Source: a virus
DNA length: 64,000 bases
Reading direction: 5' to 3' (one strand)
Virus record (IMG/VR): IMGVR_UViG_3300027779_000011
Coordinates: 64,001-128,000 of that record
Position 1 is the first letter of the stretch; the number at the start of each line of letters is the position of its first letter. Position numbers and translations under genes: made by a program. Below are positions 7,252 to 59,161 of this stretch, in pieces. The notes beneath the pieces are model-generated. The model saw nothing but the letters and a program-made list of their open reading frames with translations, was not told the origin of the DNA and ran no database searches.

Positions 7252-8877
7252 ATGTCTTTTAAAAATGTAGACCTAGGAAGAGATGCTAGGGAGAAAATGA
7301 AAAAGGGTCTTGACATTCTTGCAAATGCGGTAAAGGTCACTCTTGGGCCGCGTGGCAGACACGTTGCAATACAGAGAGAGTATGGCCCTCCGCAAATTAC
7401 AAAAGATGGTGTTACTGTTGCCAGATCTATAAACCTATCTAATAGTGTTGAGGATATGGGTGCTCAGCTTATAAAGTCTGTTGCCGCAACAACAAATGCC
7501 GTTGCTGGCGACGGCACTACAACTGCAACTGTCTTGGCTCAATATATTTATAATGATGGAGCCAAGATGGTTGAAGCTGGCCATAACCCTGTTTTGATAA
7601 AAAGGGGAATCGACATTGCCGTAAAGAATGTTTCGAATTCGCTAAAAGAACTCAGTGTTCAGCTTACAGATGGCGATAGCATAAAAAGTGTTGCCTCAAT
7701 ATCTGCAAATAATGATATGGAGCTAGGTAGCTTAATTGCAGATGCGGTAATGAATGTTGGAAACGATGGAATGATATCAGTAGAAGACTCTGCCGGAACA
7801 GATACCTCGGTATCATACACCGATGGGCTAAAGATAGATAGGGGGTATTTGTCTCCAATGTTTATAACCAATCCAGAGAAGCTTTTGGTCGAGATGGAAA
7901 ACCCATTAATTCTTTGCTTTGATGGTAATATGGGCTTTCATAACTTCAATAAAGAGTATCTTCCGTTATTCAAAAAAGTTTCAGAATCAGGGAGAAAGGT
8001 TCTTGTTATAGCCAAAGAGTTTGATCATGAGGTTATGTCGACTTTCATTTTGAATAATTCAAAGGGCTCTATATCTTCATGCCTAATTCGGGCTCCTGGG
8101 TTTGGTGACTTCAGAAGGGATATGCTTGGAGATATAGCGGCAGCATGTGGTGGAAAGTTGTTCACAGATGACTCTGGAGTTGGACTTTCGGAATCAGAGG
8201 TAGATGATTTGGGTACGGCAAGGAGAATCGTAGTCTCTAGATTCGAGGCAACTATTGTTGACGGTGGAGGTTCTATGGATGATATAGAACGAAGAGTATC
8301 TGCATTAAAAGCCCAGCTTGATTCGGATATGTTAGAAGGCTTTGAAATAGCATCTCTGAAGAGTAGGATTTCAAAACTTTCTGGTGGAGTTGCAGTAATA
8401 AAAGTTGGTGGATCAACTGAGAGTGAAATGAAAGAGAGAAAAGATAGGGTCGAGGATGCTATAAACGCTGTTAAGGCTGCTATCGAAGAAGGCGTTGTCC
8501 CAGGAGGGGGTGCTTCTTTGATTCACTGTGTTAATTCGGTCGAGTTATTTGAGTCATCAAAGGAGTACATGAGTTTGCTACCGGAAGAGAAGATTGGGGT
8601 GGGCATAGTCAAGAACTCTCTTTCTGCTCCATTTAGACAGATAATGATAAACTCCGGAATGGAAAATCAGTATATGAGAATTATGGATAAGATACTTCTG
8701 AAGAAAGGGTTTTCTGGGTATAACGCTTTGTCAAATACTTTTTCAAATAATATGTTAAAAAGCGGAGTCATAGACCCCACAAAGGTAGTTAGAACTGCAA
8801 TAGTAAATGCGGCATCTGCAAGTGGAATTATGCTAACCACAGAAGTTGCAATATCATCAGCAGATGAACAAAAATAA
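7252..8877 (+). CDS. groEL: Group I chaperonin GroEL, copy 1
   Basis: [58 protein letters not shown]; no GGM tail. Confidence 0.96.
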   Translation: MSFKNVDLGRDAREKMKKGLDILANAVKVTLGPRGRHVAIQREYGPPQITKDGVTVARSINLSNSVEDMGAQLIKSVAATTNAVAGDGTTTATVLAQYIYNDGAKMVEAGHNPVLIKRGIDIAVKNVSNSLKELSVQLTDGDSIKSVASISANNDMELGSLIADAVMNVGNDGMISVEDSAGTDTSVSYTDGLKIDRGYLSPMFITNPEKLLVEMENPLILCFDGNMGFHNFNKEYLPLFKKVSESGRKVLVIAKEFDHEVMSTFILNNSKGSISSCLIRAPGFGDFRRDMLGDIAAACGGKLFTDDSGVGLSESEVDDLGTARRIVVSRFEATIVDGGGSMDDIERRVSALKAQLDSDMLEGFEIASLKSRISKLSGGVAVIKVGGSTESEMKERKDRVEDAINAVKAAIEEGVVPGGGASLIHCVNSVELFESSKEYMSLLPEEKIGVGIVKNSLSAPFRQIMINSGMENQYMRIMDKILLKKGFSGYNALSNTFSNNMLKSGVIDPTKVVRTAIVNAASASGIMLTTEVAISSADEQK

Positions 8878-10417: not shown

Positions 10418-10837
10418 ATGATAAAGCTATCTGCATTTGAATCAGCAAGAATAACAGACCCTTCCAGTGGAAAAGAGGTTAAGGTTTCCACCACAGTCAG
10501 GATGCAGTATAGGTGGCTATATAGAAATTATGAGCCTGAGTTTCAAAGCATGAGAAATAATATTCTTAATGAGATAATAGGAAAAGATTATTCTGGTAGC
10601 TCCGGTGATGGCAATATGGTGCATAGGTTTAAGCTTGGAAGCTCTAGCATTGAATCAAAGGAAAGGGAGATTGCTGAGATCAGAAAGTTTTCTCCATCAT
10701 CAGAAAGAGCTAGGGCTTTTAATTTCTTTATAGCAGTAGAGCGAAGTGATGGAATTTATATATTAGCCGTAAAGCAAAGCTGGAAGTCTCCTAAGTATAC
10801 CAAAACTTATGGTTATACAAAGAAAAGCAGAACTTAA
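10418..10837 (+). CDS. Hypothetical protein (possible virion cluster member)
   Basis: 139-aa basic ORF starting MIKLSA; first gene after the terminator. Confidence 0.65.
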   Translation: MIKLSAFESARITDPSSGKEVKVSTTVRMQYRWLYRNYEPEFQSMRNNILNEIIGKDYSGSSGDGNMVHRFKLGSSSIESKEREIAEIRKFSPSSERARAFNFFIAVERSDGIYILAVKQSWKSPKYTKTYGYTKKSRT

Positions 10838-10883: not shown

Positions 10884-11546
10884 ATGAATAAAAAGACTGC
10901 ACAATTAAAGCCGCCAAACTGGGACCCCGATATTCTGCCAAAGTTAAAGCAGATAAACTATGGTTCTCAAGAGGGTGAGATAAAGAGAATTTTAAACGAT
11001 CCAAGTAAAATTATATTTGACGCAACCTCTCCATCGGATAATCCCAATGCTTCTGCTTGGGTCACAACCGATGATTTGAAAGATGGAAAAATTGATGCGG
11101 TTCATATAAACGCAACAAAGATTCCAAAACCGGGGGATGGCTTTGAACAAATGGCCAATCAAATAATCGCATCAATTTCAGCATTGTTATCTCATGAAGT
11201 CGGACACATTGAAGACTTCAGAGAGGAGCTTTATGAATCAGGACAAGACCCGTTTCCGGGTGGAGAGGCTGTAGCTGAAGAAGCACAAAGACAACAGGAG
11301 CAAAGAGCAATGTTAGCATTAGAACAAATGGCGTCAGCAAAGAGTACTTTGGTGAAGCTTTCAAATGATCTAGATGGTTCTGGTAATGGAAAGATTGCAG
11401 ATAGTATAGATAAATTATTATATGTTATCTCAAAAGAGGAAGTCAGTATAAATAAGACGGCCATACAAAAAGATGATGACGTGTTGGCAGAAGAAGTGTT
11501 TATGTTTAATGACTCATTTTATAAGAAACCATTCGGAAGGATGTGA
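10884..11546 (+). CDS. Zincin-motif (HEVGH) protein with C-terminal LVKLSNDLD motif
   Basis: GAGG RBS then MNKKTAQ; NASAWV...IN...LLSHEVGH...E pattern of minimal zincins. Confidence 0.7.
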   Translation: MNKKTAQLKPPNWDPDILPKLKQINYGSQEGEIKRILNDPSKIIFDATSPSDNPNASAWVTTDDLKDGKIDAVHINATKIPKPGDGFEQMANQIIASISALLSHEVGHIEDFREELYESGQDPFPGGEAVAEEAQRQQEQRAMLALEQMASAKSTLVKLSNDLDGSGNGKIADSIDKLLYVISKEEVSINKTAIQKDDDVLAEEVFMFNDSFYKKPFGRM

Positions 11547-11568
11547 TGATTGGCAAATATTCAAATAA

Positions 11569-13863
11569 ATGGGTGATATAAAAACCATGAAGAAGAAAAC
11601 CGTAGAACAAGAGAATGAGCTTGGAGATACTCCGACTGATGCGATAGCTGGTATGCACATGCCAGATCCCGAAGGTTCGTGGAGAGGCTCCGATCCGGGA
11701 GAGAATAGCTATACTTATGATAAGAAGCAGATTGCATACCATGAAAGACGCCTGACCGGGAGAAAAAGAAAGGAAAATGGTTTATCAAAAGGGGCAAGAG
11801 GTCTTTTGGATATGCAAACGGAACAGGGAAAGTCCGGTGAATATTTTGAAGAGGATGAGACCGGGTTATTTGGCAATGAATCTCCTGAAGATTTACCTAC
11901 TAATAAACCAGATAGAAATATAAGATATGAATCATCTACCGGCAGCTCAGACGTAGATCTGTCTGATTTTTCGTTCTTGGGGTTTGGAAAAGAATCAAAA
12001 AGGAATTATGAAATGAACAATGAATTAATCAAGCTATCAAACTTATTAGACGAGATCGGAAGCGTTAATGCTGCGGATAGAATAGATCTTATGATTATAA
12101 AGGAAGCGGTAACTACGCCTTCTGGGTGGAGTTCACGTCCTAGCTCTAGTGCCTCTACGTCTCAGCAGAATCTTCATCGCGCTTGTACTGCATATTATAC
12201 AGCAATAGATACTATGGAGTCTCAGAATTATTACAGTGGAGGCGACGAAGGTGCTGCCGAGGATGTTATAAATGCAGTATGGGCAAGATATAATGCCTTT
12301 GACGGCTGGGGTGATAACGATGATGCACTTCCAAATGCACTTATTAGCGCAGCTCGTTCGGCTGAGCCAAGTCTTACATCAAGACCTGAGGGTTATTCTT
12401 CATGGTTTGAAGCTGTTGTAAAAGAAGGGGACGTTAATTTTTCCAACGGAAACTCAGCCTTCTACGGTAATTCTGACGGATTTGCAATAGACGCCAAGAA
12501 TTTTTGGGGGAAAATGAAGAGTGCAATCAAAAAAAACAGGGCAGCCGAAACAGCAGCCGAAACAGCAGCGGCAACAGGAGGAACCGCTCTCCAAGATGAT
12601 ATGGACCCTGAAGATAAGATGGGAGATGCTCCCTTTTTCTACCTTCTTACTGAAGCACAAAAGACCACTGCTGAACAGCCCGAGGCAGATTTCTTAAGAC
12701 TAGAATGGGGAGCATCTGAAACACCCCCTCAGTGGAGAATACAGTTTAGAAAAATGCGTGATCTTTCTGTGTGGCTAGAGGCCAATTCAGAAAAGAGAAG
12801 CCTTGTAACGGAAGAGTGGATTGAAGAATTATCAGAACTTGGGAATGGGGCATACAAGGATGGGTTTCAATGGACTACGGGAGCTGTGACAGAGTATGCC
12901 AACAAAGGAAAGATTCCGCATCCAGGGAAGGGATACGCTGCTTATTACGACTCTTGGGAAGGGTGGACTGACTCATGGACTGTAATGTATGACCTTCTGC
13001 GTAACCAAGAAACAGTAAAGGCCTCTGGCGAATTTGCACAACAACAAGCAGAAGGAAGATCGGGCGGCGGCGGCGGTGGTGGTGGCAGTAGAGCCGTTGC
13101 TTCTATCGTTGATTTATCAGGTGGAGTAATAACTGATTCTGATACTGGTAACAAATTCAGAACATGGGTCTATTCAGATGCTGCGAGGGCTAGGTGGGCC
13201 TCTAGTAATAACTTTGATAGTTCTCACACAGTGTTTAATTCCAGAGCTATGAGGAGTGCTTGGGCGACTTATGGTAATCAGTATAAACAATATTTGCAAG
13301 TCGCTGGACCGGACGAGTTACTTGCTGGCTCCGGAACCGGAAGTGTGGCAAGGCGAGAATCTGTGGATGATTTACTTGGGGAGACAGCTCCACAAGCACC
13401 TCCAGTTGCAGCTCCACAAGCACCTCCAATTGCATCTCCACAAGCACCTCCAGTTGCAGCGACTCAGCCAGAAGCAGGGTGGACTATCGAGAATGTTGGT
13501 TCCGCAGTAGATGAGTTATATAGAGGGGTTCGGATTGGCAAAAACAGTGAAAGGAAAGTAAGAAGAACGACTGCTAGAGCACTAAGAGATTTGGGCCGTG
13601 GTTCTACCCAGGAGATTCTAAACTACTTGTCTGGAAGAACACCTCCATCATCTGCTACGATGAGATACAGCGAAGTTTATAACGCTCTAATGGACCTAAA
13701 GGAACAGCTATCAGGAGGCCGCAAATCAAGGGCGGCTAGGATTGATAGGATTAATGCCTTGTCGAAAACCAGTGACGATGTCATAGATACTTATAAGAAA
13801 GCCGCAAACAACCGAAGAAGAAGGGTGTCTGAGGATAGAAAAAAGCTTTACGATAGTATCTGA
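11569..13863 (+). CDS. Large low-complexity hypothetical protein, putative head-packaged protein
   Basis: 764 aa; internal MNNELIKLSNLLD motif, poly-Gly and APQAPPVA linkers, Arg-rich C-terminus. Confidence 0.7.
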   Translation: MGDIKTMKKKTVEQENELGDTPTDAIAGMHMPDPEGSWRGSDPGENSYTYDKKQIAYHERRLTGRKRKENGLSKGARGLLDMQTEQGKSGEYFEEDETGLFGNESPEDLPTNKPDRNIRYESSTGSSDVDLSDFSFLGFGKESKRNYEMNNELIKLSNLLDEIGSVNAADRIDLMIIKEAVTTPSGWSSRPSSSASTSQQNLHRACTAYYTAIDTMESQNYYSGGDEGAAEDVINAVWARYNAFDGWGDNDDALPNALISAARSAEPSLTSRPEGYSSWFEAVVKEGDVNFSNGNSAFYGNSDGFAIDAKNFWGKMKSAIKKNRAAETAAETAAATGGTALQDDMDPEDKMGDAPFFYLLTEAQKTTAEQPEADFLRLEWGASETPPQWRIQFRKMRDLSVWLEANSEKRSLVTEEWIEELSELGNGAYKDGFQWTTGAVTEYANKGKIPHPGKGYAAYYDSWEGWTDSWTVMYDLLRNQETVKASGEFAQQQAEGRSGGGGGGGGSRAVASIVDLSGGVITDSDTGNKFRTWVYSDAARARWASSNNFDSSHTVFNSRAMRSAWATYGNQYKQYLQVAGPDELLAGSGTGSVARRESVDDLLGETAPQAPPVAAPQAPPIASPQAPPVAATQPEAGWTIENVGSAVDELYRGVRIGKNSERKVRRTTARALRDLGRGSTQEILNYLSGRTPPSSATMRYSEVYNALMDLKEQLSGGRKSRAARIDRINALSKTSDDVIDTYKKAANNRRRRVSEDRKKLYDSI
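13387..13458 (+). repeat. 24-bp in-frame tandem repeat x3 (APQAPPVA/APQAPPIA/SPQAPPVA)
   Basis: GCTCCACAAGCACCTCCAGTTGCA units. Confidence 0.92.
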
Positions 13864-13907
13864 TGCTTATATTTAATAACTTGAATTACCAAAGAGGAAT
13901 CTAAAAA

Positions 13908-15473
13908 ATGCAAAACGAATTAATCAAACTTTCAAAGACCTTAAGCGGTCTTGGCCATAAGAAGCACTCCAGTATAGTCAGAGGCCTTGGAGTACCAAGC
14001 GTCAGCATTATGCTTTCAAAGTTTGCAGGAGCTCCAAACCCAGGACTTATAAAGCTCATCAATGGAAATGCTGCTAATAGCAAAAGTCAGGTAGGAATTA
14101 ATCTCAGCTATAAAGGCAATGACGATCTTGGAGAGTGGGCAACGGGTTCGGATGAAATATCCATTGCAACCCAGGAAGTGCTGACAGACTTTATAGATAT
14201 GGTAAAAGGGATAAATGCTGATACCCCAGAAAAAGCCTATGAAACACGCGCAAAGATAAAGGCTATCACGGTAAGTGTTTATACTGATACCGCAGGTAAT
14301 GATGCTAATAACGAAGCTCGTAGTCAAAGGCGAGCAGATATAATTGTTGCAGCCCTAAGGCAAGATGTTCCTGGGGTAACCTTCACAGGGAAGGGTATGG
14401 GAGAGGATGCGGAAAAGAATAAGAGATACCTTAACTTCCAAATTACCGAAATAGAAGCTAGGCAAGCTGTAATGGATTCCCATGTAGTGGCCCTTAATGA
14501 TGGTGGAACAGCGTACTGGTTTCTAAGACAAGGTAACTACTTTGTTGTAGATGTTACCAAGCCAGATGCCCATAGAGCCGCTACCAAAGCCGAATCTGCA
14601 ATCCAGAAAGACAGCACTGGTAAAGGGACCGGTGATGCTGGAAATGCTCTTGTTTATTTTGGAGCAGAGGCTGCTATTGCAGCTGGGGCAATTAGCCCGG
14701 TAGAAAATCCAGCCGGAACAATTTATATGGTAGATAGCGCGAAGCTTACGGGTGCCGCAGCCATGATGAGCTTAGAGGATACAATTCAGTCACCAACAAC
14801 TCCATCTGAAAGAGCCACTAAGCTTGGTGCGTCTGCCGAGGCAGGACAGGTTGCTAGGACCGAAAGTGAAGCTTGGCCAGCAGAGGTCGTAAAAGATTCA
14901 ATAAGAAGACTCCTTGAGATCAGAGAACCATTGGAGATAGACCCAGATGGAGGTGGCTCACAGCCCGCTGCTCAAGCCTTAGCTGCACATCGCGTTAGGC
15001 GCAATATGAGGAGAATGTTCAAGACTAATATGGAAAAAAACCCTGACGGGTTTGACCGTACTGTTCAGAAATTGGCTCAGGAAATGACAGCTAGTCCAAA
15101 CTTTGTATATAATCCAGATGAAGGTGCCGCAGGATCTAACATAGGAATGGTGTTTATGGCGGCGATGCAATCAGAGAGTGTGGCCCAGTCTACTGGTGGC
15201 TCTGCTTCGTCAAGAGCAAAGAACTCAAGAAAGGGTAGGCGAAGAATGGAGAAGGCTAAAGCCAGAGCACGAAAAAGGTCTGATAGAGAGAGATATGATA
15301 ACCCGCTAATTCCAAACTTTATGGAGCGTGGCCAGAAGTTTAACGAGAGAGGCGAGAGAAAGGCTTCCTCAAGCACAATAGAAAGCCTTCATAAGATTTC
15401 AATGAAAAAGTCATCTGCAAAGTCTGCCGCTAAGAAAAGAAGAGAAAGAATTAAAAAAGAAAATATGCGATAA
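13908..15473 (+). CDS. Putative virion protein with OmpA-like peptidoglycan-binding domain
   Basis: ITVSVYTDTAGNDANNEARSQRRADIIVAAL...GKGMGE...KNKR matches the OmpA_C pattern GHTD..G....N..LS..RA..V..L...G.GE...NRR; N-terminal MQNELIKLS motif. Confidence 0.72.
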   Translation: MQNELIKLSKTLSGLGHKKHSSIVRGLGVPSVSIMLSKFAGAPNPGLIKLINGNAANSKSQVGINLSYKGNDDLGEWATGSDEISIATQEVLTDFIDMVKGINADTPEKAYETRAKIKAITVSVYTDTAGNDANNEARSQRRADIIVAALRQDVPGVTFTGKGMGEDAEKNKRYLNFQITEIEARQAVMDSHVVALNDGGTAYWFLRQGNYFVVDVTKPDAHRAATKAESAIQKDSTGKGTGDAGNALVYFGAEAAIAAGAISPVENPAGTIYMVDSAKLTGAAAMMSLEDTIQSPTTPSERATKLGASAEAGQVARTESEAWPAEVVKDSIRRLLEIREPLEIDPDGGGSQPAAQALAAHRVRRNMRRMFKTNMEKNPDGFDRTVQKLAQEMTASPNFVYNPDEGAAGSNIGMVFMAAMQSESVAQSTGGSASSRAKNSRKGRRRMEKAKARARKRSDRERYDNPLIPNFMERGQKFNERGERKASSSTIESLHKISMKKSSAKSAAKKRRERIKKENMR

Positions 15474-28711: not shown

Positions 28712-31700
28712 ATGAGTACTAAAATTACATTTATCGGCCTTGATGGCGATGCCGAACTAGAGGCAATGCTTAGGGACGCTGCATCTTCAGATGGGGAGCC
28801 GACCGGAACGGATGGGGTTGTTATTAATATACAATCCCTGGAAGCAACGTGGAATATAACTTCTGAAAAATGGGACATTGAGTTAATTGTAAAGATATTG
28901 GCAAGCGATGATTCCCTGTGGACTCATTGGCATTACGCAATAAATTCTACTTTTTCTGAGTCAGGAGCGGCTGGCGGATATATGGTTTTGGGCGGCGGCC
29001 TCATAAAGGTTATCTCGTCTGTTAGCCCCGGAGCATATAGCTTTGCAGTCGTAGCTGTAAATGGAGACCATGAAGCTGCAAGCAATGTCGATGTAACAAC
29101 TGTATTATTACCTGTCGATGGGTCTGCAACTGTAATTACCGACGCACTAGGCATAGACGGAGAGGAGACTGTATCTGTAAATCTACTGAGCTTGGCAGAC
29201 GAGCTTGGTATAGACAAAGAAGACCTGGTTGAGGCGATAGTTGCGTCAACATCTGTAGACACAGAGGTCACATCTGGAACACCACTTGTTGGTGGAAAGA
29301 CTTATTATAAAAATGCGGAAACAATAGTTACATCACAAGTAGCTAATGCATGGTTTGGTGGCGAGCGCAACCAACCATCATCCATTGGGCTTCCCTCCAA
29401 TGACCCGAAGGTTATAGGAATAGTACATGACGGGAGCCTAAGTCTGGATGGGCATGCTGAAAAAATTATGCTTACAACCAGCGCCAACATAAGGGGCAAG
29501 TTGCCTCATGTGAATCTATCTGCTCAGGGTGATATTGATGGCCCGGCTGTATTTAAGGCAAACGTAAAAACATGGCCAGCGTCAGAATATGTTGGTAAAG
29601 CTATTCCTGAAATTGATGCGTCAACTGGAGAGTATTACCTAGATTTATCACTTCTTAGGGCTGAGTTGGAAGATATGAGTGGAGGAGCTTTTGAGGAGTA
29701 TCCCGATTTTTCCACAACTCTATTTGAAGAAATAAGTAGCGTGCAGTCCGAGATAACCTTAACGGACGGGTTAAGCTTTCCAGATTCCGGTTATGTAAAG
29801 ATCGAAGAAGAGTTTATACTTTATACCGGAAAGACCGGAGATGACATACTTACAGGGTGTGTGAGAGGGATTTTGCCAAGCGCCGCGCCCACAGAGCATT
29901 CAGAGGGAACTGTAGTAAGAAGTATTCCGGACGTTATTAAAACCGTGCATGAAAAATATACCGATATTGTTATATCGGCAAATGTTGATGAGAGACTAGA
30001 CTTTGTGTTCGGGTCCTCCTCACCAGAGTTTTCAGCAGACACCTTTACACATAGGAACAGGTTCTTGTTTGACAAGCATAACGCGGCATTTAGAGCTGGC
30101 ACAGTAACAGGCACCTATTGGAACGCCGCCCACAGGGGTATTGCGTCTGCGGCGTTTGGTTATAATGGGGTTGCAAAGGGAGACGCGACGTTCGTAGCCG
30201 GTGCTTTTAACTACGCGGAGACTCCAGGTTCTGTGGTCATGGGGTTTGGAAGTTCGATTTGGGAGGGGGATGAAGAATCTAGCACCACTAGCCTTGGTGT
30301 AGCATCCTCTTCAAACACTATAACTGGTGGAGAGTATAACGACATTTATAATGGATACGGCTCCGGAGCTCTCTCTGGTGCAATAAACTGGGTTGACTTT
30401 TCAAGGTCTTCCGCTATTGTGTCTGGTGAGAAAAACTGGATTAGAGGCTCTTGTGATGAGAGGGTTAATTATTCGTTTATAGGTTCTGGGTATCAAAATA
30501 TAATAAACTTCTCCAATGGTTCCGGAATAGTTGCTGGAGATGAAAATATTATTGGTGGAGAGTCAACGGGTTCTTTTATAGGAGCTGGGGAGAATAATAA
30601 CATCCTCACAAATGAGGATGCCACAACTTCTTCTGGCCTTAAAAACGTGCTTAAAAATAGGGACAAGCTAATAGAAAATTCCCCATTCGCTCCCGGCGTG
30701 CTTGCGGATAGGTGGACTTGCGAGGATGATGACGGATATGGGAGATCGGAAAGAAGAAAGAAAATGAAAGATTCCGGTTCTAGTTACTTTGGTACTTCAT
30801 TCAACTCAGTTATAGGTGGTGGAAAGGAAAACACCATTGTCAACGCAGACCAGTCTTTTGTGGGCGGTGGAGATGAAAATATAATATCGGTATCAAGAAG
30901 CTCATCTATACTCGGAGGAGAGAATAATTCGATTGAGCCATATATTATCATCACAGGCCCCTTCGGAACTGGTTTTCACAGGTCATTCTCGATATCCCCA
31001 AGTTATGTCTCGGCAATAGTCGGAGGAAGAGATAACTTCATAATGGCAGACGCAAGCGCATCCACGATTGTAGGAGGTGTTGCGAACACCATAGTTGAAT
31101 CCGAGGTTGGGTTGCTATTCGGAAAGGATAATGCATCTCGAAAGACTCCGACAACAGAGGTTGTCACAAGGTTTACTCATACAACAGGTTACGCGGCAAA
31201 ATCTAATTTATACGGGCAGCACGCTCATGCTTCCGGCGGCTTTTATTCTGCAGGAGGAAGCACATCTAAGAGTGGAGCAAAATACGTTAAGCACACTTCT
31301 TCTCAAACAAGAAAGCTGATGGGCTATGAGGATCTTAGCAAAACTTCTGGATTCTTGAGAACCAAGGATGCTTCGTCAGATGTTTTATTGCAAAAAGTAA
31401 TAAACCAGGACGCCAAAGATATATCCGATGAAAGGGAGTTTGCCGAACAGGTTGGCTCTAAAAAGTCAGATATTATTAAAGCGGGACAGGCAAAGTATAT
31501 AAGCAAAGTAATGGAGTCTGATCCAGACCCAACAACTGAAAGCATTTGGAGCTCTAACTCTGATATGCACATTGGGTCGGCTCAGACATCTGTTCTAACA
31601 CTTAGGAGAGAGGTTACCTTTGGAGACTTTCTTACTCAGATTAACCCTCCGATGCTTTTTGGAGAAGAAACCGAAAAGGTCGGATATGGATTTCAGGAGG

Positions 31701-33787
31701 TAAAGACATTCTCCACTTCTAACTCTGGTCCTAAATTTCTTATATTCACAAGAACCTTAGATAGGGATGAGAAGGGGAGCCATGAGAGCAAGACGTTTGA
31801 TAGCTGGTATCACTCACCCTCCAGCTATTTGAGTGATAGCCAGGGAAATGGCCTGCCTCTAACTGCAGATTATAGTTCTCGCGGTTCAGTCAGCGGCCTT
31901 CCTAGGCAGTCAGCAGAATTCCAATGGCTTCAGATATCTGATGTGCATCTTAATAGGGCGTATAAAATTCCAGCAGTTGGATTTTCTTCTTTCACCTGGG
32001 ATTGGCTAGAACGCCTTCTATCTTGGACAGAATCTATGTTCCCAGCTCACCATGGCGTCACTGGAGGAGTAAGGAGTAATGGGGGGCTGAACTTCGAAAA
32101 AGTGCTCAAGGGCCTGATCCCCTCGGCTAGCGACCCGTACGGAAACCCTATTTCGAGCCATACAGGTGTACCTATTAAGAGAATTACTAACGCGTGGAAT
32201 GGAGGGTTTTCCCCATTAACTGGATTACCCGATCTAAGTGAAGACGGATTGTCGGGGATCGTTGATGGCGTTACTCTGACTGACAGAACAATAAGCCTTG
32301 GAGATGACCTAATACTTCACCCGGTTGGCAAGGGAACGATTATCAGCAAGCTATCTGGAGCAGGTGATGAATATGCAACCCCCCTGACTATTATCATCAC
32401 TGAGGATATGTTCGATGCCGCTGCTGCTGGTGAGGATGGATATTTTTATTCTGCCAATTCAGATGGAACTTATACATTTTATTACAGATGCATAGATATG
32501 AAATATGACTTAGGTAAGGGTTACCCCTCGGAAGCAGATTTTGAGGCTATGGATAGAGTGCGGGTTGGAACCGCCCTCCAGGCTCAGTCTGATCAGGTTA
32601 GGACTGCAGATACATTTGAGATAATGGAGATAGGTCAGGGTTACAATATTGATAAGTTTTATATACCTTTTGAAAATGAAGTTGAGGATGAAGAGGATAT
32701 TACAAACTCTAGTGAGTTTGAGCTATTTTTGAGTGATCCTGAGTTTGCACAAGTTTTGGAAGTTGAGCCATTTTCTGTTTGGGCGTTTAGTATTACTGCG
32801 GTGGTAACTACACACAATACATCTTATGATGATGCAACGATGCATACTGCATTTGGTGGAAACAGGGGGATGCTTAGAACTGCAGTAATGAAGGCATGTG
32901 GAGGTATATCATATCCGGGGCTTCATAGTGGAGAATATGGTGACACAATCGACCTAACATCTGCGGTAGTGTTCTCCAATGATGAGAACGGCTTTGATAA
33001 GACCACGTATTCAGATGGTGCGCCGTCTTCAGGAGTAAATTCTCCAATTATGGTCAGCGGAACATCTGGAAATTATATGGATAACTATATGGATAACGAT
33101 GATGACGCCGGGTTTTATCTAAAAGTTGATGCGGGATCAACCGCAATTCCGTTTGGTGCAATGTCTTTTGCTCCATCTCATAAGGATTATTTGAGGTTGA
33201 TAATCGGAACAAGGCATCCGTGCAGGGTGGTGGCTAGGGTTGAGCTAACTCAGATATCAGGTATAGAGTCTTTTGTTGAAGACTACGAACTAGTATATCT
33301 TAAGTCCCAGGAAGAGAAGGTGGCTGGGGGCAAGACCCCAACATCTGTTATTGAAAAGGCGATTGACGAAATTAATGATAGCACTATTTTGGAAATAGAG
33401 GATTTCGATATACAGGAAGCTTCTGTTATAGCGAAAGGCAAACAGTTTGCTGACCTAACATCTAAAGAGCTTAAGAAGATTGTCACAATCGTTGATGCGA
33501 CAAAGGGTGCTTTGATAACATCAGATATTGAGTATGATGTACTTACTGTTGATTCTGTAAATGATAGCATAGAGCAGTATGGATTAGACACTGTAACACA
33601 GAAAGAGTTAGAGACTGCCTCGCTAGAAAGCGCAACCCTCGGTACAAGTATGGACACTTCAATTGATAAAGTGTCTCAAGATATCTCTGCAGAAATAGAC
33701 GCCTCAGTAGAGGCTCTCGGGGTTGACTTGAAAACAGATGCCAGCCTCAATGCTTATTTGGATAATAAAAATACTAAGCTATATTAA
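28712..33787 (+). CDS. Tail fibre/adhesin-like virion protein with YadA-head-like beta-roll repeats
   Basis: 1691 aa; FPDSGYVKIEEEFILYTG...LTGCVRG module; AAFRAG..G..W motif; many S-x-I-x-[GA]G-x-x-N-x-I repeats at about 30300-31100. Confidence 0.7.
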   Translation: MSTKITFIGLDGDAELEAMLRDAASSDGEPTGTDGVVINIQSLEATWNITSEKWDIELIVKILASDDSLWTHWHYAINSTFSESGAAGGYMVLGGGLIKVISSVSPGAYSFAVVAVNGDHEAASNVDVTTVLLPVDGSATVITDALGIDGEETVSVNLLSLADELGIDKEDLVEAIVASTSVDTEVTSGTPLVGGKTYYKNAETIVTSQVANAWFGGERNQPSSIGLPSNDPKVIGIVHDGSLSLDGHAEKIMLTTSANIRGKLPHVNLSAQGDIDGPAVFKANVKTWPASEYVGKAIPEIDASTGEYYLDLSLLRAELEDMSGGAFEEYPDFSTTLFEEISSVQSEITLTDGLSFPDSGYVKIEEEFILYTGKTGDDILTGCVRGILPSAAPTEHSEGTVVRSIPDVIKTVHEKYTDIVISANVDERLDFVFGSSSPEFSADTFTHRNRFLFDKHNAAFRAGTVTGTYWNAAHRGIASAAFGYNGVAKGDATFVAGAFNYAETPGSVVMGFGSSIWEGDEESSTTSLGVASSSNTITGGEYNDIYNGYGSGALSGAINWVDFSRSSAIVSGEKNWIRGSCDERVNYSFIGSGYQNIINFSNGSGIVAGDENIIGGESTGSFIGAGENNNILTNEDATTSSGLKNVLKNRDKLIENSPFAPGVLADRWTCEDDDGYGRSERRKKMKDSGSSYFGTSFNSVIGGGKENTIVNADQSFVGGGDENIISVSRSSSILGGENNSIEPYIIITGPFGTGFHRSFSISPSYVSAIVGGRDNFIMADASASTIVGGVANTIVESEVGLLFGKDNASRKTPTTEVVTRFTHTTGYAAKSNLYGQHAHASGGFYSAGGSTSKSGAKYVKHTSSQTRKLMGYEDLSKTSGFLRTKDASSDVLLQKVINQDAKDISDEREFAEQVGSKKSDIIKAGQAKYISKVMESDPDPTTESIWSSNSDMHIGSAQTSVLTLRREVTFGDFLTQINPPMLFGEETEKVGYGFQEVKTFSTSNSGPKFLIFTRTLDRDEKGSHESKTFDSWYHSPSSYLSDSQGNGLPLTADYSSRGSVSGLPRQSAEFQWLQISDVHLNRAYKIPAVGFSSFTWDWLERLLSWTESMFPAHHGVTGGVRSNGGLNFEKVLKGLIPSASDPYGNPISSHTGVPIKRITNAWNGGFSPLTGLPDLSEDGLSGIVDGVTLTDRTISLGDDLILHPVGKGTIISKLSGAGDEYATPLTIIITEDMFDAAAAGEDGYFYSANSDGTYTFYYRCIDMKYDLGKGYPSEADFEAMDRVRVGTALQAQSDQVRTADTFEIMEIGQGYNIDKFYIPFENEVEDEEDITNSSEFELFLSDPEFAQVLEVEPFSVWAFSITAVVTTHNTSYDDATMHTAFGGNRGMLRTAVMKACGGISYPGLHSGEYGDTIDLTSAVVFSNDENGFDKTTYSDGAPSSGVNSPIMVSGTSGNYMDNYMDNDDDAGFYLKVDAGSTAIPFGAMSFAPSHKDYLRLIIGTRHPCRVVARVELTQISGIESFVEDYELVYLKSQEEKVAGGKTPTSVIEKAIDEINDSTILEIEDFDIQEASVIAKGKQFADLTSKELKKIVTIVDATKGALITSDIEYDVLTVDSVNDSIEQYGLDTVTQKELETASLESATLGTSMDTSIDKVSQDISAEIDASVEALGVDLKTDASLNAYLDNKNTKLY

Positions 33788-43625: not shown

Positions 43626-46600
43626 ATGAAAAAAGAAAAAAGATTAACTTTATTAAGAAAGTATTTTAAAAAGTCTGCAACGGATAAGTCATCTGATGAG
43701 CCTAGGGTTTCCCCTGTTATAGTCAGGCTAATTACAGATCTGCTAGAGCTTCATGAAGAGGGCGCTCTTTCGGAGATTAGCGATGAGGTCTCAGGGTCAG
43801 TTATTGAAAACCTATTGGGGGCATACGAAAGGCTTAGCGCCGGAAGAGATGATTCTGAGGGGTTGCTTGTAGAAGATTACGACGTGCTTGATACAAGTGG
43901 AGACCGGATTAGTGACGACAGGTATGTGCCGGAAGATGAAGATGACTGGCTTGCGGAGGAGCATGAGCCTGGGGCTACGGTACAGACTACCATGCAGGAG
44001 GACTATGAAAACGTTCTGTCGGACTATGATGAAGTCATCTATACGATAATAGAACAATCATTTGGCGAGGGAGATATAGAGACTGGCATTGAAAATATGA
44101 TATCAGAGGATAAAGACTTTGTCTCATCCTATGTATCAAGTGCTTTCTCAACCCTAAGCAGGGCTCTCGATAGTCTGGATAAACATTTTCCAACGGATTC
44201 GTTTTCAGGTAGCAGTGATAAGGAGCTGGCCAGCAGAATAAAGTACATAGAAACGTACAGGGAAGAGGTAAGGGGTATGTACAAAAACCTTAGTGGCCTT
44301 TCCGGACTTGGCAAAACCATAGAGAATGCGAATGACGCTATATCAATCCTGAGAGGCTATAGAGAGGGCCGAAGCGGTGGGACAGTTGAGGAGCCCGCTG
44401 GTGATCCTGGTGGCGAAACAATGATATTTGGACCAGACCGGCAGCCGGGGAAGCCCGGTCGGAGAAAGATTCGCCCCCTCGACGACCCTGCGGGGAAGGC
44501 CTCCAGGCGTAATAAGAAGTATTTGTTAACAGAGGAAGTTGCGCCATCCCGTGTTATGAATGATCATTCTAATATCGATCAAGAAGACTTAACGACTGAT
44601 TGGTCAGTTGTTTCCAGCCAGCTATCTTCATTTTCTGAAGGATTTTTTACAGATGTTGATTCCGATATTTTAAATGGCGTAGAAGATAGGATGACCATAG
44701 AGCAGAAAGAGCTGCTTATTAGAGATAATTTTGAAAAGTTTGCTACAAATCTTTCTAGTGAGATAACTTTAATAAGGAATAGGCTGATAGATACTTCAAT
44801 TGGGTTTGGTGGACGCATATCTAATGAGGCTAACATCAGCAAGGCAATATCTAGCTTGAATAACCTATATGCATCCTTATGGGTTTGGGATCAGATAAAT
44901 AAGATAAGAATAAAGAGTATGGACATAGGGTATGTAAATACGATCAAGATATCTGGAACATACAGTATCATCAGGCACCTTAAGTCTGTCGGAAGATCCA
45001 CGCTAAGGAATTTCGTGGAGAGCGCAATTATATGCTCAAGAACAAAGCTTATGTTTAGGAAGGTTAGGAATGACGAGGGAGCTTATGACGAAGACTTAAC
45101 CGCTAGGTTTATGCAAGAGGTTGTAAATCAAATTATAAATAAGATGTCTGCCGCCATTAAAGATGGGAGTAATAAAGAAAATATAATTAAGTATATAGGT
45201 ACGATTCCGATAAACCAAACCTTGTTGCGAATAAATGCCAAAAATATTATAGATGTAGAATCCGGGGTTGTCGCATCAAAGACTGTTGTTAATAACAAGT
45301 ATACAAAGTGCCCTGTGTGTAGCAAACAAATACTTTGGGGATTAAATGGTGGTGGTTCAGATAAGGAGAAAATCGATAGGTTTAAGGAAAAAAATCTTGG
45401 TAATTTTAAGTATGTTCAATATTCCTTTTATAGGGCCGATGGATCTCTAATAGATATAAATGACTTAATCGAACCTTCAAGCACCTTAATTAGTGACGCC
45501 GATGCAGACGCCGATGCCGATCACGGATGGAAGTCTAAGGAGTATTCCGGAACAAAAACGTGGATAGAGATAAGCAATATGATCTACTCTGGAGACAAGA
45601 GTGACCACGCAGAGGGCCTGAGAAGAAGGTCCGAAGTGCTTGCTTACTTTGGCGGAGAGCCGCTGAATAATGGAGAGGAGGTAAGAATAAGGGACTCTAG
45701 GTTTGGCTGCCCATATGATTCTGAGAATGACCACTGTGGACTTGCGGTTTCTGAAGACGGAGATGAGTTTATGTTCGGATGGAATGGATCCGGCAGGACA
45801 GTTATTTCTGGTGATAAAAGCAAAGGGCCTACTAGACTTGATTTTTATGGCAAGAGAGATGGAGATAATTATTATACAAACTCAATAACCGAAGGCAATG
45901 AGCAGAACGCGAACCATATGGCTAAAAAATATGGAAATGGTGGATATAAGTTTTCAAAGCATTGCTTCTCATGCCCATGCAGAATTACTCAAGACGTTGC
46001 AAAAGATGATGGCAAATTTTTATATAAATATAATTATATGGCGATACCGTACTTTGGAGTGCACTCTGCAGATAATATATCTAATTATGAATTATGGAAA
46101 GAGAAGTCTCCAATAGGGCTTCCGACAGCCCCCGATGGTAGTGTTGATGATACAATTGGTGATAATACGGTTGGGTATGTTATTTGCGGTGCATCAACAT
46201 CTCTGTCATCTTTCTCCAGAAGTGGACAGCTCTCTATCAGCTCTCTTTTTCAGTCGATATATGAAGCAGAGGGGTCTGGAGACAAACCAAGGGGAACTGC
46301 GAAGAGGCTTTCTGAATGGCTAATATCAAATGGCGTTGACCCATTTGATATATATGAGTTTGTACATACTGGAAAATACCACTCTGTGGATTTAGAGATT
46401 CCTCCAGGGGAAGGGGAGGCATCGGACCCGATTCCTGCCGCATCTTTGCCAGAGGGTTTTTTCTCATCACCGGCTGACCGAGGATATACAGATCTTTATA
46501 TGAGTGAGCAAGACCCTAAGCCGCCCGCCTTGGATGAGAAGGGAACTGTGGTACGAAGAAGGGGCGGTGTCGACAACAAGGAAAGTGCGCTTATACGCAG

Positions 46601-49600
46601 AAGTAGGAGAAGAAAAAACAATCTTAAAATTATAAACATTACATCTTCTTTGGATATAAATAAGTCAAAGAGGTTGCACAAAATATCGGAGCTTTTGTCT
46701 ACAGCTATGGCCAAGTCGATTGACTCTGATATATATGACATCATCGGAGGCTTATCCCTATCATGTCCTAATGGACATAAGTTTTCCATATCTCAGAGTA
46801 TTAACTTTGCGAATAATAATATGGCAAGAAAGATAAGGGGGATGACGAGGATAGGTGAATATAGTTCTGAACATAATGCTCTAATGGCAAATGGATCATT
46901 TGAAAATTATAAAAAATTAGGAATTATAAAGGAGGTTTCTGATTTCGATAACCATCAGCAATATGATAAATGGACGGTATCATCATCGTCAAAAAGAGAC
47001 CCGTCAAGGCTATCGTTCCTTGGGCCGGATGGTAGGTATTATAAAATAAGTGAAGTGTGGAACCCTGGAAAGGGTGGCTTTTTGGCTACAGCCTGGAACA
47101 CTAGATCTACCGCAAGGGCTCCTTACTCATTTACTGATCCGATAGTTGAATTTAGAATGAACTATGAGCTATCAGACAAAGAGTATGTTAAATCAAAGTC
47201 AACCACAAAGGGAGAGGATGATTCTGGAGAGTCCTCGGCTTTAGAAGGGGAGATGGTAAGATCAGTTGAGGAATCTGTTGGTGGAGAGGAAACAAACGTC
47301 ACCGATGATGCAAGGACAATAGACGAGCAACTTTCAGAGGGCTATCATCTGGTTCAGCCAATACCTCATCCAAGCAGGCTTTCTGCGAACGCAGATACCG
47401 TTAGGATCCAGGTAAAGCAGCTCTCTATATCTGTTGAGTCTATTTTAAATGTAATAGCCCAATGGAGGGATAACGCAGTCGACTCTTCGTTTAACATGGC
47501 TTTTGCATATCCAGAAAACATTTGTTGCACTGAGGATGACTACCGGACTATAAAGACGAGCATTCCGGAGATAATAGACATTGCTGTTGGGCCAGAAGAC
47601 CTGGAGAAAACCTCCCTACAGGTATTTGAAGATCTGAAATCAAACTTGTTTGATTCATATCTAGATGGTGTTGATTTGAACAGAATTCATTTAATGATTC
47701 CAAATTATACATATGAGTATGTATCAAATATGATATATGAAAATATATCGAGTTCGTTAAAATCTGTAATTGGGTTAGAATATAATGATGAAATCAGACT
47801 AGATACAAAGTCCGAAGCCTTTTCTGACATAGTCAACATACTCTTTCCGTTAAAAAGATTTAGCCCGGTGTCTCAAAAGGCAAGTTACGGCAAGGAGTTA
47901 GTGAGGAAGGAGTTTATAGGGAAGTTATACATGGTTGCTTCTGCAATATATTTATCCAGAGCTATGGAGAAATACGCAAATAATTACCATAATCCGGCGT
48001 CATCAAATTATGTTGGATATAGATTGCCATTAGACTTAGACGCAAACTCTGCTTTTAATGTGTCAAAAGAGCAGATATCTGGATTTCCGTCAGAAGTCAT
48101 AAGGGATCTGGAACGCGGAACAGATCAGCTCCTAGACGCAAATGGAGGCATTGTCGGGGAAATACAATATGATGTGGATGAGTCTGGGGCTATTTTGAAT
48201 GAGGATGAAATATTAAGAAAGATTAAATCTGCATATCACTTCTCAATAAAAGAAGATTTGGAAAATATAGATAGCATAGTCTTCTCCAGGGATGTTTTAG
48301 ACGCCGCTAGGGAGTATATATCAAACATGGCGATCGACAAGATCATAGAACCCATATCTAATACGGACAGTGTTTTGCAATATATGGATGAAAACGGCTA
48401 TGTTAAAATAGATGATGGAAGTTATTCATATGAAGACAGGATTAGGGCAATATCAGGCATACTAGATCAGGCTAGGGCGATTGAGGATAAGGGGGTTAGG
48501 TCTCATAAAGCGGGAGCTAAGAACAAACAGCTTATGTCATTTTTGACAGAACATGGTATAGACCCGGTTTTCTATAGGAATAAAACAATCTTTGATGCAA
48601 TGACCTCTTCCTCTCAGGTTGCAACAGTAAGCTTTAGGCCATACATGGATGAGTGGGAGGGACCTAGCGGTCAGGATTATGTTCAGCCATATAAGCCTCA
48701 AATTCCATCTTCTTTAAAAATTATGTTTGCGTACCCAACAAAAGAAACTGTTGCCGCCCAGAAGGACTTTTTTAACAAAGATACGATGACTATTAGGGCC
48801 TTCATGAGATATCCGATAATATCTCTGCCATCACACAACAGTGGGTTTTTAGTATCGCAGAAACGAGGAACTGAGGTTGGCCATTTTGTTGTGTCAAGGC
48901 TAAGGCCGCTGGGCTCTAGGACGGCAAAGATAGAGGGCCAAGAGCTTCAGGATTTTATATCTTCAAAAAGGTTGTACGAAGTTGATGCATATACAGAAAT
49001 GCTGGATAATATGGGCTTTAATATATGGTTTGTCTCTCAACTAGAATACCCCGCGAAAGGGGTTTCTTCCAAAACATATTCACCATTATTTGGGCATCTT
49101 GATAGCGAGGGGAGCCCCAAAAAAGATCTCAAGGCAAACATTTCAAGCATCTTGGATCATCCAGCAACAGAGGCTGGGGTGGATGAAAATGGAAATGATT
49201 TTTACATAAATTCATTATTCAATTATGATAGCAGGTTGTGGCAAATTGGAAGGGTTGGGAAATCTAGTGCCACTGGCGCTGTATTTTCGTATCCAATATC
49301 TGAAGAAAATCTTATGAGGTATGATAGTCCAATCGGAGTGATCCTTCCTTTTGATCTATCACCATCGTCATCAAACATGGGTACGAACCAGGAAAGGAAT
49401 CTGGCCAAAGTGTTTAGGAATGCGCTTCCTATAGCAGATATAAACTTTATTGTCGAGATTGACAATATGCCAATAGATATAGGGTTTCTTGTCCAAAAAA
49501 CGAAGGGGGCGTTTCTGAAAGGCCTTTCTGATATAGATAAAAGTTATAATTCATATAGGGCAGGGGTCAATAAAATAAAGTCTAATAGCTCTACTAGTGC

Positions 49601-50783
49601 GGAAGAAAAGTCTCAATTGGAAATGGACGAAGCGATGAAGTTAAATGATAGAGCCGCTGGAACTGTAAATTCAATATCTAGGCTTAATTATTCAGTAAGA
49701 ACATCTGAGTCTGCATCCAAAAAGCGTTCGGCGCCAGCAATTCCCGGCAGCGATCCTTACGTGTCTGCTATTTCAAAGCTGGATACTCCAATTTGGAGAT
49801 CGTCAATTAGGCCGTCAATACCCCTCGTGGATCCTCAGACTGCGTACAGGTTGGTAAGCGGAGAACAATACAGTATTTCTGGACTAGTGCCAGAGCTAAC
49901 GTCCGAAGAAAAGAACGCCCTTTATAAGTTTATTGTTGATGTATATGGATTAAACGTAATTGGAAAAGTATTTTCGCCGCTAATGGAGCGAGGTGTTGGC
50001 TCGACGTTATCACCAGAAGAGACGCTGGACTTAGAAAATGTTGTGAAGGATTATGCCGAAAATAAACTTGGATTCGAGCTTACCGATGATGAGTATATGG
50101 GTCGCAAAAAAGTAAAGGGCGCCAGGGATAAGGGAACTCCGGCAGAAAGGGTACAGCTTATTTTAGACAAGCTCAATGCGCTAAGGCCGAATGTGGTCGG
50201 CATTGGGAAAAAGACAAGCCTTACAGTTAAGAACAACAACCACCTTGCAAACGTTATGGGAATCGATCCTGGAATGTATTACAACCTATCCCAAGAGTCG
50301 GCCATATCTTACGTGCCTGTTTCTGTTCCGGTTGAGTTATTTGGACAAGAGTGGAAGAAGGGCTGGACCCCTATAGATACGAAGACTGTCTTGCAAACTA
50401 GAGATGTGCAAAGAGGTTATAGGGTAGACGAAGACGGTAGAAAAATTCCAGTCAGGGATTCGCTTCTTGCCGGAAGAATTAGCGCCGCAACATTAGATTA
50501 TTTCCGTGGAACACAGACGGGGGATGTTGCGAGCATAGATCAACATGGCGCAGAGATGTCAAAAGTTGTTCCTGGCACAGCATCCGGTGTAGAGGGCATT
50601 GTCGGATTGGCGACGAAGATGAAGAGGAACTTATTATTACACATGGAAAGAAGACTCAAGGGTTTGAGCATAGAAAAATTAAGTGAAAAAAATGATTTAT
50701 TAAATAAAATTTCTTACAGGCGGAGGAGACTCTTTAGTATAATTAAGACCAATGGGCATGGTGCCGATTACAAACTTAAATAA
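43626..50783 (+). CDS. Giant hypothetical protein with multiple Cys/His motifs (putative virion-packaged)
   Basis: 2385 aa; CPVC, CPY..HC, CFSCPC, CPNGH; basic K-x-[AS]/RRRR segments at start, middle and end. Confidence 0.75.
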   Translation: MKKEKRLTLLRKYFKKSATDKSSDEPRVSPVIVRLITDLLELHEEGALSEISDEVSGSVIENLLGAYERLSAGRDDSEGLLVEDYDVLDTSGDRISDDRYVPEDEDDWLAEEHEPGATVQTTMQEDYENVLSDYDEVIYTIIEQSFGEGDIETGIENMISEDKDFVSSYVSSAFSTLSRALDSLDKHFPTDSFSGSSDKELASRIKYIETYREEVRGMYKNLSGLSGLGKTIENANDAISILRGYREGRSGGTVEEPAGDPGGETMIFGPDRQPGKPGRRKIRPLDDPAGKASRRNKKYLLTEEVAPSRVMNDHSNIDQEDLTTDWSVVSSQLSSFSEGFFTDVDSDILNGVEDRMTIEQKELLIRDNFEKFATNLSSEITLIRNRLIDTSIGFGGRISNEANISKAISSLNNLYASLWVWDQINKIRIKSMDIGYVNTIKISGTYSIIRHLKSVGRSTLRNFVESAIICSRTKLMFRKVRNDEGAYDEDLTARFMQEVVNQIINKMSAAIKDGSNKENIIKYIGTIPINQTLLRINAKNIIDVESGVVASKTVVNNKYTKCPVCSKQILWGLNGGGSDKEKIDRFKEKNLGNFKYVQYSFYRADGSLIDINDLIEPSSTLISDADADADADHGWKSKEYSGTKTWIEISNMIYSGDKSDHAEGLRRRSEVLAYFGGEPLNNGEEVRIRDSRFGCPYDSENDHCGLAVSEDGDEFMFGWNGSGRTVISGDKSKGPTRLDFYGKRDGDNYYTNSITEGNEQNANHMAKKYGNGGYKFSKHCFSCPCRITQDVAKDDGKFLYKYNYMAIPYFGVHSADNISNYELWKEKSPIGLPTAPDGSVDDTIGDNTVGYVICGASTSLSSFSRSGQLSISSLFQSIYEAEGSGDKPRGTAKRLSEWLISNGVDPFDIYEFVHTGKYHSVDLEIPPGEGEASDPIPAASLPEGFFSSPADRGYTDLYMSEQDPKPPALDEKGTVVRRRGGVDNKESALIRRSRRRKNNLKIINITSSLDINKSKRLHKISELLSTAMAKSIDSDIYDIIGGLSLSCPNGHKFSISQSINFANNNMARKIRGMTRIGEYSSEHNALMANGSFENYKKLGIIKEVSDFDNHQQYDKWTVSSSSKRDPSRLSFLGPDGRYYKISEVWNPGKGGFLATAWNTRSTARAPYSFTDPIVEFRMNYELSDKEYVKSKSTTKGEDDSGESSALEGEMVRSVEESVGGEETNVTDDARTIDEQLSEGYHLVQPIPHPSRLSANADTVRIQVKQLSISVESILNVIAQWRDNAVDSSFNMAFAYPENICCTEDDYRTIKTSIPEIIDIAVGPEDLEKTSLQVFEDLKSNLFDSYLDGVDLNRIHLMIPNYTYEYVSNMIYENISSSLKSVIGLEYNDEIRLDTKSEAFSDIVNILFPLKRFSPVSQKASYGKELVRKEFIGKLYMVASAIYLSRAMEKYANNYHNPASSNYVGYRLPLDLDANSAFNVSKEQISGFPSEVIRDLERGTDQLLDANGGIVGEIQYDVDESGAILNEDEILRKIKSAYHFSIKEDLENIDSIVFSRDVLDAAREYISNMAIDKIIEPISNTDSVLQYMDENGYVKIDDGSYSYEDRIRAISGILDQARAIEDKGVRSHKAGAKNKQLMSFLTEHGIDPVFYRNKTIFDAMTSSSQVATVSFRPYMDEWEGPSGQDYVQPYKPQIPSSLKIMFAYPTKETVAAQKDFFNKDTMTIRAFMRYPIISLPSHNSGFLVSQKRGTEVGHFVVSRLRPLGSRTAKIEGQELQDFISSKRLYEVDAYTEMLDNMGFNIWFVSQLEYPAKGVSSKTYSPLFGHLDSEGSPKKDLKANISSILDHPATEAGVDENGNDFYINSLFNYDSRLWQIGRVGKSSATGAVFSYPISEENLMRYDSPIGVILPFDLSPSSSNMGTNQERNLAKVFRNALPIADINFIVEIDNMPIDIGFLVQKTKGAFLKGLSDIDKSYNSYRAGVNKIKSNSSTSAEEKSQLEMDEAMKLNDRAAGTVNSISRLNYSVRTSESASKKRSAPAIPGSDPYVSAISKLDTPIWRSSIRPSIPLVDPQTAYRLVSGEQYSISGLVPELTSEEKNALYKFIVDVYGLNVIGKVFSPLMERGVGSTLSPEETLDLENVVKDYAENKLGFELTDDEYMGRKKVKGARDKGTPAERVQLILDKLNALRPNVVGIGKKTSLTVKNNNHLANVMGIDPGMYYNLSQESAISYVPVSVPVELFGQEWKKGWTPIDTKTVLQTRDVQRGYRVDEDGRKIPVRDSLLAGRISAATLDYFRGTQTGDVASIDQHGAEMSKVVPGTASGVEGIVGLATKMKRNLLLHMERRLKGLSIEKLSEKNDLLNKISYRRRRLFSIIKTNGHGADYKLK

Positions 50784-57490: not shown

Positions 57491-59140
<1,650 letters not shown>

Positions 59141-59161
59141 AAATAAAATTGGAGTTTATTG

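Follow-up and report, generated by a model that had tools for sequence, protein, structure and literature searches.

A portable peptide module, probably a docking label, on unrelated proteins of a phage-G-like marine giant phage

In this study, we analysed a 64,000-nt window of viral DNA, bases 64001–128000 of the 158,716-bp IMG/VR contig IMGVR_UViG_3300027779_000011, in which three adjacent genes, here called A (zincin-like), B (764 aa) and C (weakly OmpA-like), share a short peptide motif. The initial annotation had noticed this motif in the three proteins and had described them as otherwise dissimilar. Both observations hold: the copies are present, as LVKLSNDLDGSGNGKIADSID at 11349–11411 followed by INKTA at 11448–11462 in A, as MNNELIKLSNLLDEIGSVNAADRIDLMIIKEA inside B and as MQNELIKLSKTLSGLGHKKHS from position 13908 at the beginning of C, and pairwise BLASTP matches among the three proteins span only 16–24 residues. 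The word L[IV]KLS occurs exactly three times in all 863 open reading frames (ORFs) of the 158.7-kb contig, every time in A, B or C, against 0.24 occurrences expected from composition. The evidence set out below indicates that the three motifs are degenerate copies of a larger portable module. Positions refer to the window unless they are given as genome coordinates, which count along the whole contig.

The features of the locus are collected in Table 1. The true start of A is probably the ATG at 10884, because the orthologs point to it. The protein has an HExxH motif (HEVGH) that is kept in the orthologs from the metagenome loci L001 and L002 and the related IMG/VR contig G002, and its structural look-alikes in the ESM Atlas are zincins. 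These reach TM scores of 0.34–0.44 only, and an identity more specific than zincin-like was not reached; neither Pfam nor PHROG gave a match for A. The N-terminal region of B is acidic and conserved. Behind it come the internal module, a middle that varies, a C-terminal part that is again conserved, and finally a tail that is very basic. Its homologs are P0002, P0003, the proteins of L001 and L002, and a 1052-aa protein of G002; B had no Pfam or PHROG match, and scans of IMG/VR with B or with the B alignment found no relatives. C matches PF00691, the OmpA-like family, with an E-value of 1.4e-4 and a score of 22.6 bits, short of the curated cut-off (27.2), and its L002 ortholog has 508 aa. Megablast and tblastn searches of cultured phages with the A/B/C region returned nothing.

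Table 1. Genes, module copies and associated sites at the A/B/C locus (window positions)
Feature	Position	Strand	Details
Gene A, zincin-like	10884..11546	+	From ORF list; 220 aa from ATG 10884, or 227 aa from TTG 10863
Module copy in A	11337..11441	+	Near C-terminus, conserved tail behind; external-only profile E = 1e-6
INKTA, hydrophobic-x-K-x-A site after the module of A	11448..11462	+	IIKSA in L001 and L002, INKTA in G002
Gene B, 764 aa	11569..13863	+	Alignment A1
AAGGA, Shine-Dalgarno-like word	12000..12004	+	8 nt before the internal Met of the module of B
Module copy in B, MNNELIKLSNLLDEIGSVNAADRIDLMIIKEA	12013..12108	+	Residues 149–180; external-only profile E = 1e-8
Gene C, 521 aa	13908..15473	+	From ORF list; N-terminal module, weak OmpA-like match, very basic tail
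Module copy in C	13908..13982	+	Residues 1–25; B-only profile E = 6e-9, external-only E = 1.4
LSKFA, hydrophobic-x-K-x-A site after the module of C	14013..14027	+	FIKEA in L002 ortholog

Profile searches tie the three copies to one another and to proteins elsewhere. A profile built from the B-family copies alone detects the copy in C at E = 6e-9, and a profile built from database matches alone (external-only) finds B at 1e-8, A at 1e-6 and C only at 1.4. The copies in A and B thus qualify by themselves as degenerate members, and that in C is more decayed and is linked through the B family. Comparison of a profile with shuffled controls had been proposed as a check in the initial annotation, and five shuffled ORF sets gave no match. 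All three copies are conserved in position in the orthologs (L001, L002, G002 and protein P0003). The G002 ortholog of A carries a near-canonical copy at the same place, and the copy in B opens with Met and closes with IIKEA, which aligns to the IIKKA of the consensus. The copy in C retains its first helix and turn but has a decayed second helix, and it resembles the module of P0003. The K-x-A ending that had been read behind each copy is likewise borne out, as a hydrophobic-x-K-x-A site is kept after every copy in the orthologs, and both LSKFA of C and FIKEA of its L002 counterpart are followed by x-A-P-N. Two weaker echoes that had been suggested, MIKLSA at 10418 and MDNILKIAS at 62457, had to be dropped: neither was detected by any profile at E <= 10, and the pattern is not kept in orthologs.

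The module has a consensus of about 31 residues, MIKELIKLANHLDsKGLvKEADYLDaIIKKA, and conservation stops directly after IIKKA. The contig holds eight copies, those in A, B and C and five better ones at genome positions 19492, 19754, 30777, 128497 and 134067. A profile of 12 aligned copies (alignment A2, 35 positions) was searched against 1.84 billion representative proteins and matched 2,062 cluster representatives at E <= 1e-3, 127 of them at E <= 1e-10. Ten of the matches were looked up; all were metagenomic, and one was a Tara Oceans record. The best 150 matches contain 206 copies, of which 130 are N-terminal, 58 internal and 18 C-terminal. These proteins have a median length of 171 aa, 48 of them carry two or three copies, and the parts attached to the module have almost no Pfam matches and are net negative in 79% of cases. 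Among related IMG/VR contigs of 109–317 kb, whole-record counts came to 22 copies in G001, 16 in G002, 9 in G003 and 19 in G005 (G005 and G001 look like the same phage), and tandem arrays of small module genes lie at 53–62 kb in G001 and 144–162 kb in G002. A strict back-translated DNA pattern was found on seven IMG/VR contigs and was absent from all 185,579 species genomes of bacteria and archaea that were searched. None of nine module-bearing proteins scanned belongs to a family in Pfam-A or PHROGs v4, the neighbours of the module in the ESM Atlas are all 'hypothetical protein' (viral where taxa are recorded, none named), and a literature search by words of the module sequence retrieved no description of it. 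Five canonical copies of G002 share 83% residue identity, and the same codon is used at only 51% of the identical residues. Such free synonymous variation implies that selection acts on the peptide rather than on the DNA or RNA. Given these searches, we regard it as established that the module is a portable, selected, virus-specific unit restricted to this phage group. The modular address tag of the initial annotation thus stood as far as modularity, portability, attachment to unrelated proteins and protein-level selection are concerned, and the K-x-A site turned out to belong to the module; the address itself is weighed further below.

AlphaFold2, run on a 29-row alignment (A4, with the B copy first), predicts that the module folds as a helix-turn-helix hairpin, with a helix at 2–15, a turn at the invariant Gly and a second helix at 18–34 (mean pLDDT 82). 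No significant match was obtained with Foldseek (best E = 1.2) or in a profile search of the PDB (best E = 0.05, top matches 0.05–0.2), and the nearest look-alikes in these searches were TPR/PPR units, ROP and designed hairpin binders. To judge from the consensus and the predicted fold, both helices bear more hydrophobic positions than a lone hairpin could bury, which would imply a partner. A two-copy fold (homodimer) scored 0.02 against a mark of 0.42 and speaks neither for nor against self-association. The AlphaFold2 model of P0019, which has a module at either end, shows four helices (pLDDT 73, pTM 0.51), and the packing of the two modules is not readable from it.

In these genomes the module marks the joints between genes. 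Just past the end of the window, at genome 128023–129147, a single gene contains an internal module; in G002 the counterpart is two genes (58531–59792), the second of which starts at the Met of the module, and in G007 it is one gene again, of 296 aa, with the module copy kept. Genes thus fuse and split at the first codon of the module. The internal copy in B likewise opens with Met. An AGGA/AGGGA-like word stands 8–9 nt upstream of the module Met in all four B homologs (the window, L001, L002 and G002, in the last at L023 near 12166 on the minus strand), and the residues encoded at this place differ among the homologs (KRNYE, NRNYK, SRESK). The AAGGA of the window could be an internal start giving a shorter, module-first product, or it could be a relic of gene fusion. 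At the A/B/C locus itself, G002 encodes four consecutive module-bearing (tagged) proteins, namely a zincin-like protein, proteins of 120 and 268 aa and the B homolog, and has no OmpA-like protein. The 268-aa protein (112644–113450, minus strand) begins with a degenerate module followed by about 70 residues rich in Gly, Ala and hydrophobics, a Gly-rich stretch that looks membrane-active. This quartet shows the A/B/C locus to be a conserved group of tagged proteins in which individual members can be exchanged.

The window derives from an uncultured, phage-G-like giant phage, because the major capsid protein of the contig has 47.5% identity with gp27 of Bacillus phage G, its nearest cultured relative by this protein, and because G002 (317 kb, 94% complete) is collinear with the contig over about 87 kb. 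The contig itself has a CheckV completeness of 47%, and its capsid protein is 82% identical to that of G002. The head and packaging genes begin at genome positions 135475 (large terminase), 137257 (portal), 144944 (protease-domain protein) and 154314 (capsid protein). The tagged protein encoded at genome 134061–134816 directly precedes a conserved 221-aa gene, the large terminase and the portal, and G002 has a module gene at the matching place, beside the same 221-aa gene. Our guess is that the 221-aa gene encodes the small terminase.

The motif that closes the module, hydrophobic-hydrophobic-K-x-A, recurs in the head genes. Compared with the 282-aa capsid protein gp27 of phage G, the capsid protein of the contig (genome 154314–155360) has some 43–45 extra N-terminal residues, a putative propeptide or docking arm. 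IVKYA at residues 23–27 lies inside this extension and is conserved in G002, as is MIKQA of the same protein. The 1125-aa protein at genome 144944–148321 matches a head-maturation-protease family at residues 103–213 only (PHROG 18299, E = 2e-13). It contains seven hydrophobic-hydrophobic-K-x-A sites in all, and FLK[SA]A near its N-terminus is conserved in G002; its long C-terminal part, which has no family, might be a fused scaffold. Pfam provided no family for this protein, and its cleavage specificity therefore cannot be inferred from family. The pattern was counted 35 times, against 14.6 +/- 4.0 in shuffles.

We propose that the module is probably a docking label that, independently of its position in the protein, would bring a wide range of unrelated proteins to a single partner that the phage encodes and that they all share. 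Of the possible destinations, the inside of the prohead (core, scaffold or inner shell) seems the most likely, for several reasons. Two conserved tagged proteins (genome 134061 and 128023) adjoin packaging and head genes, and the K-x-A ending of the module recurs, conserved, in the capsid extension and in the protease-domain protein. B and C end in strongly basic tails, and C has its weak OmpA-like match. In related genomes, small tagged genes form arrays like the internal-protein loci of phage T4, and the A/B/C locus of G002 has its four consecutive tagged proteins, one with a membrane-like stretch. Precedents also exist, in the capsid targeting sequence (CTS) of T4 and the cleaved propeptides of phage SPN3US. 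The zincin-like A, the large B and the OmpA-like C would then ride in the head and be ejected, and the head protease may cut at the hydrophobic-hydrophobic-K-x-A that closes the module. The docking to a single partner, the delivery to the capsid and the cleavage are all steps that we infer. Loading of the tagged proteins into the capsid seems to us to fall just short of an even chance. The full scheme is more tentative: one hairpin would be the universal loading signal for dozens of unrelated proteins per genome, which would be ejected into the host and freed by the head protease at hydrophobic-hydrophobic-K-x-A, and the cargo would include a zincin as well as a large DNA-associated and a wall-binding protein.

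A shared address peptide would be a known kind of thing, and the module itself appears to fall in no catalogued family that we found. The closest parallel is the CTS of T4, a 10-residue tag on the internal proteins IPI–III and Alt (Mullaney and Black 1996, reviewed in PMC9026906), which are hypervariable and are encoded in variable arrays (PMC9026906). Like the CTS, the module is one peptide on unrelated, fast-changing proteins, it is mostly N-terminal, its small tagged genes form arrays, and it ends in a short possible protease site. The T4 arrangement, in which unrelated proteins share a leader that is typically N-terminal, has its counterpart here: the attached parts are unrelated and 130 of the 206 copies are N-terminal, among A, B and C only that of C. 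Unlike the CTS, the module has about 31 residues and two helices and shows no sequence likeness to the T4 tag; it also occurs internally, C-terminally, at both ends or alone; the parts attached to it are mostly acidic; and its candidate site lies after Lys-x-Ala whereas that of T4 lies after Glu. The ejection proteins of SPN3US have long N-terminal propeptides that are cleaved off (PMC5694885), and in SPN3US and phiKZ a T4-like protease cuts after A/S-x-E (PMC5694885, PMC10052503). These large proteins are carried in the head and have long N-terminal regions whose starts are common to paralogs, and the conserved 180-residue N-terminal part of B, up to IIKEA, would fit such a scheme; sharing is among paralogs there, however, and among unrelated proteins here.

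Two kinds of helical hairpin also invite comparison. The scaffolding protein of phage P22 has a C-terminal helix-turn-helix domain that binds the coat protein and has also been used to load foreign cargo into P22 capsids. The P22 hairpin, like that predicted for the module, has two helices and about 30 residues, and it docks a protein inside the procapsid; it is basic and found on one protein, in contrast to the module, which is nearly neutral and found on thousands. Neither sequence comparison nor structural searches (PDB profile search, Foldseek) gave a significant match between the two. TPR, PPR and LisH hairpins share with the module the pattern LA..L...G...EA..L of an A-helix, a Gly turn and a B-helix, but the module is a lone unit outside any repeat array. 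Pfam at E <= 1 found nothing in six module-bearing proteins, and no TPR or LisH match was seen among the best 150 matches.

A number of observations weigh against a loading signal that is clipped off in the head. At the profile threshold of E <= 1, no module was found in the capsid protein, the decoration protein, the portal, the protease-domain protein or the terminase, and none in phage G; a tblastn search with the consensus of 50,697 cultured-phage records, presumably with T4-type phages among them, also gave no match. The three genes have GroEL on one side and a PurZ-like gene on the other, with replication genes near by, and the core block of the window comprises DNA polymerase, SbcCD, UvsX, an FtsK-like protein and a second GroEL, with no recognisable structural genes. 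The excess of K-x-A sites over shuffles is what amphipathic helices give anyway, and only a few of these sites are conserved between the genomes. In A, a conserved C-terminal peptide comes after the module, and in B the best conserved part is the 148 residues that precede it; neither arrangement resembles a disposable leader. Many database proteins have the module at both ends, and some consist of the module alone (35–46 aa); such proteins are explained no worse by a general unit for docking or cross-linking.

The module could accordingly be a general docking or oligomerisation hairpin, a single TPR-like unit, whose hub is something other than the capsid (a replication or assembly factory, the phage chaperonin or a host target) or which links the tagged proteins with one another, so that A, B and C would form one complex in the infected cell. 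Bookended, multi-copy and module-only proteins favour this reading, as do the hydrophobic surface of the hairpin, which on consensus and fold exceeds what it would bury alone, the non-significant look-alikes among TPR/PPR units and designed hairpin binders, and the GroEL and replication genes that adjoin A, B and C. The mostly acidic character of the attached parts points the same way, given that the internal proteins of T4 are basic. On the other hand, no candidate for the hub came to light, the packaging genes have two conserved tagged proteins beside them, and the motif that ends the module is also conserved in the capsid extension. We consider a hub outside the capsid less likely than the prohead, but the main alternative to it.

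An improbable explanation is that the copies in A, B and C are relics of domain shuffling, left when module-first genes were fused to upstream genes and no longer sharing a function. The degenerate state of A and especially C (external-only E = 1e-6 and 1.4), the Met behind a Shine-Dalgarno-like word at which the B copy opens, and fusion and fission at the module start in the 128023 family are what such a history would leave. Against it, the copies are position-conserved in orthologs though the rest of B is only about 39% identical; the conservation of B runs up to the module and falls sharply just past its first helix and turn, and near-canonical copies exist at the same locus in G002. Conservation of the DNA or RNA, through a recombination seam, a translation-initiation cassette or recent gene conversion, with the peptide as a by-product, would suit the frequent placement of the module at gene starts; we regard it as highly improbable, because only 51% of identical residues share a codon in the five canonical copies, internal and C-terminal copies are common, and the same residues are found across genomes despite quite different DNA. 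Chance resemblance of three amphipathic helices, conceivable for a short motif rich in Leu, Lys and Ser, is ruled out by the occurrence count in adjacent genes, the cross-family profile E-values, the shuffled ORFs and the conservation of the copies in orthologs.

Some further features of the genome were recorded. The window encodes two GroEL-type chaperonins, at 7252–8877 and 57491–59140 (PHROG 5725, E = 4e-142 and 4e-127), and G002 likewise encodes both; a GroES-like gene was not noticed in the phage, though no search aimed at GroES was made. Two very large ORFs in the conserved core block, at 28712–33787 (1691 aa) and 43626–50783 (2385 aa), did not match any PHROG at E <= 1e-5. Upstream of small genes at genome 1–18 kb, outside the window, two words cluster: AGATATTTT, with 12 of its 14 occurrences there, and CGGGAGAAA, with 15 of 20. 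In the upstream k-mer analysis, words were mainly limited to these first 18 kb, and no motif emerged by which the tagged genes could be assigned to an early or a late class.

In summary, analysis of the A/B/C locus led to a nearly invariant 31-residue module that is present in over 2,000 protein clusters and absent from the cellular genomes searched, and that merits definition as a family. The module also accounts for gene-boundary changes in these genomes. Should it serve as a label for loading or docking, one profile would pick out all the proteins that abundant uncultured ocean phages send to one place, most of which have no family. This would give a first list of probable injected effectors, as well as a compact, folded tag with which foreign proteins could be loaded into capsids. 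If the full capsid-loading scheme is true, the module would represent the second natural programmable capsid-cargo system after the capsid targeting sequence of T4, one whose tag is folded and whose protease code differs.

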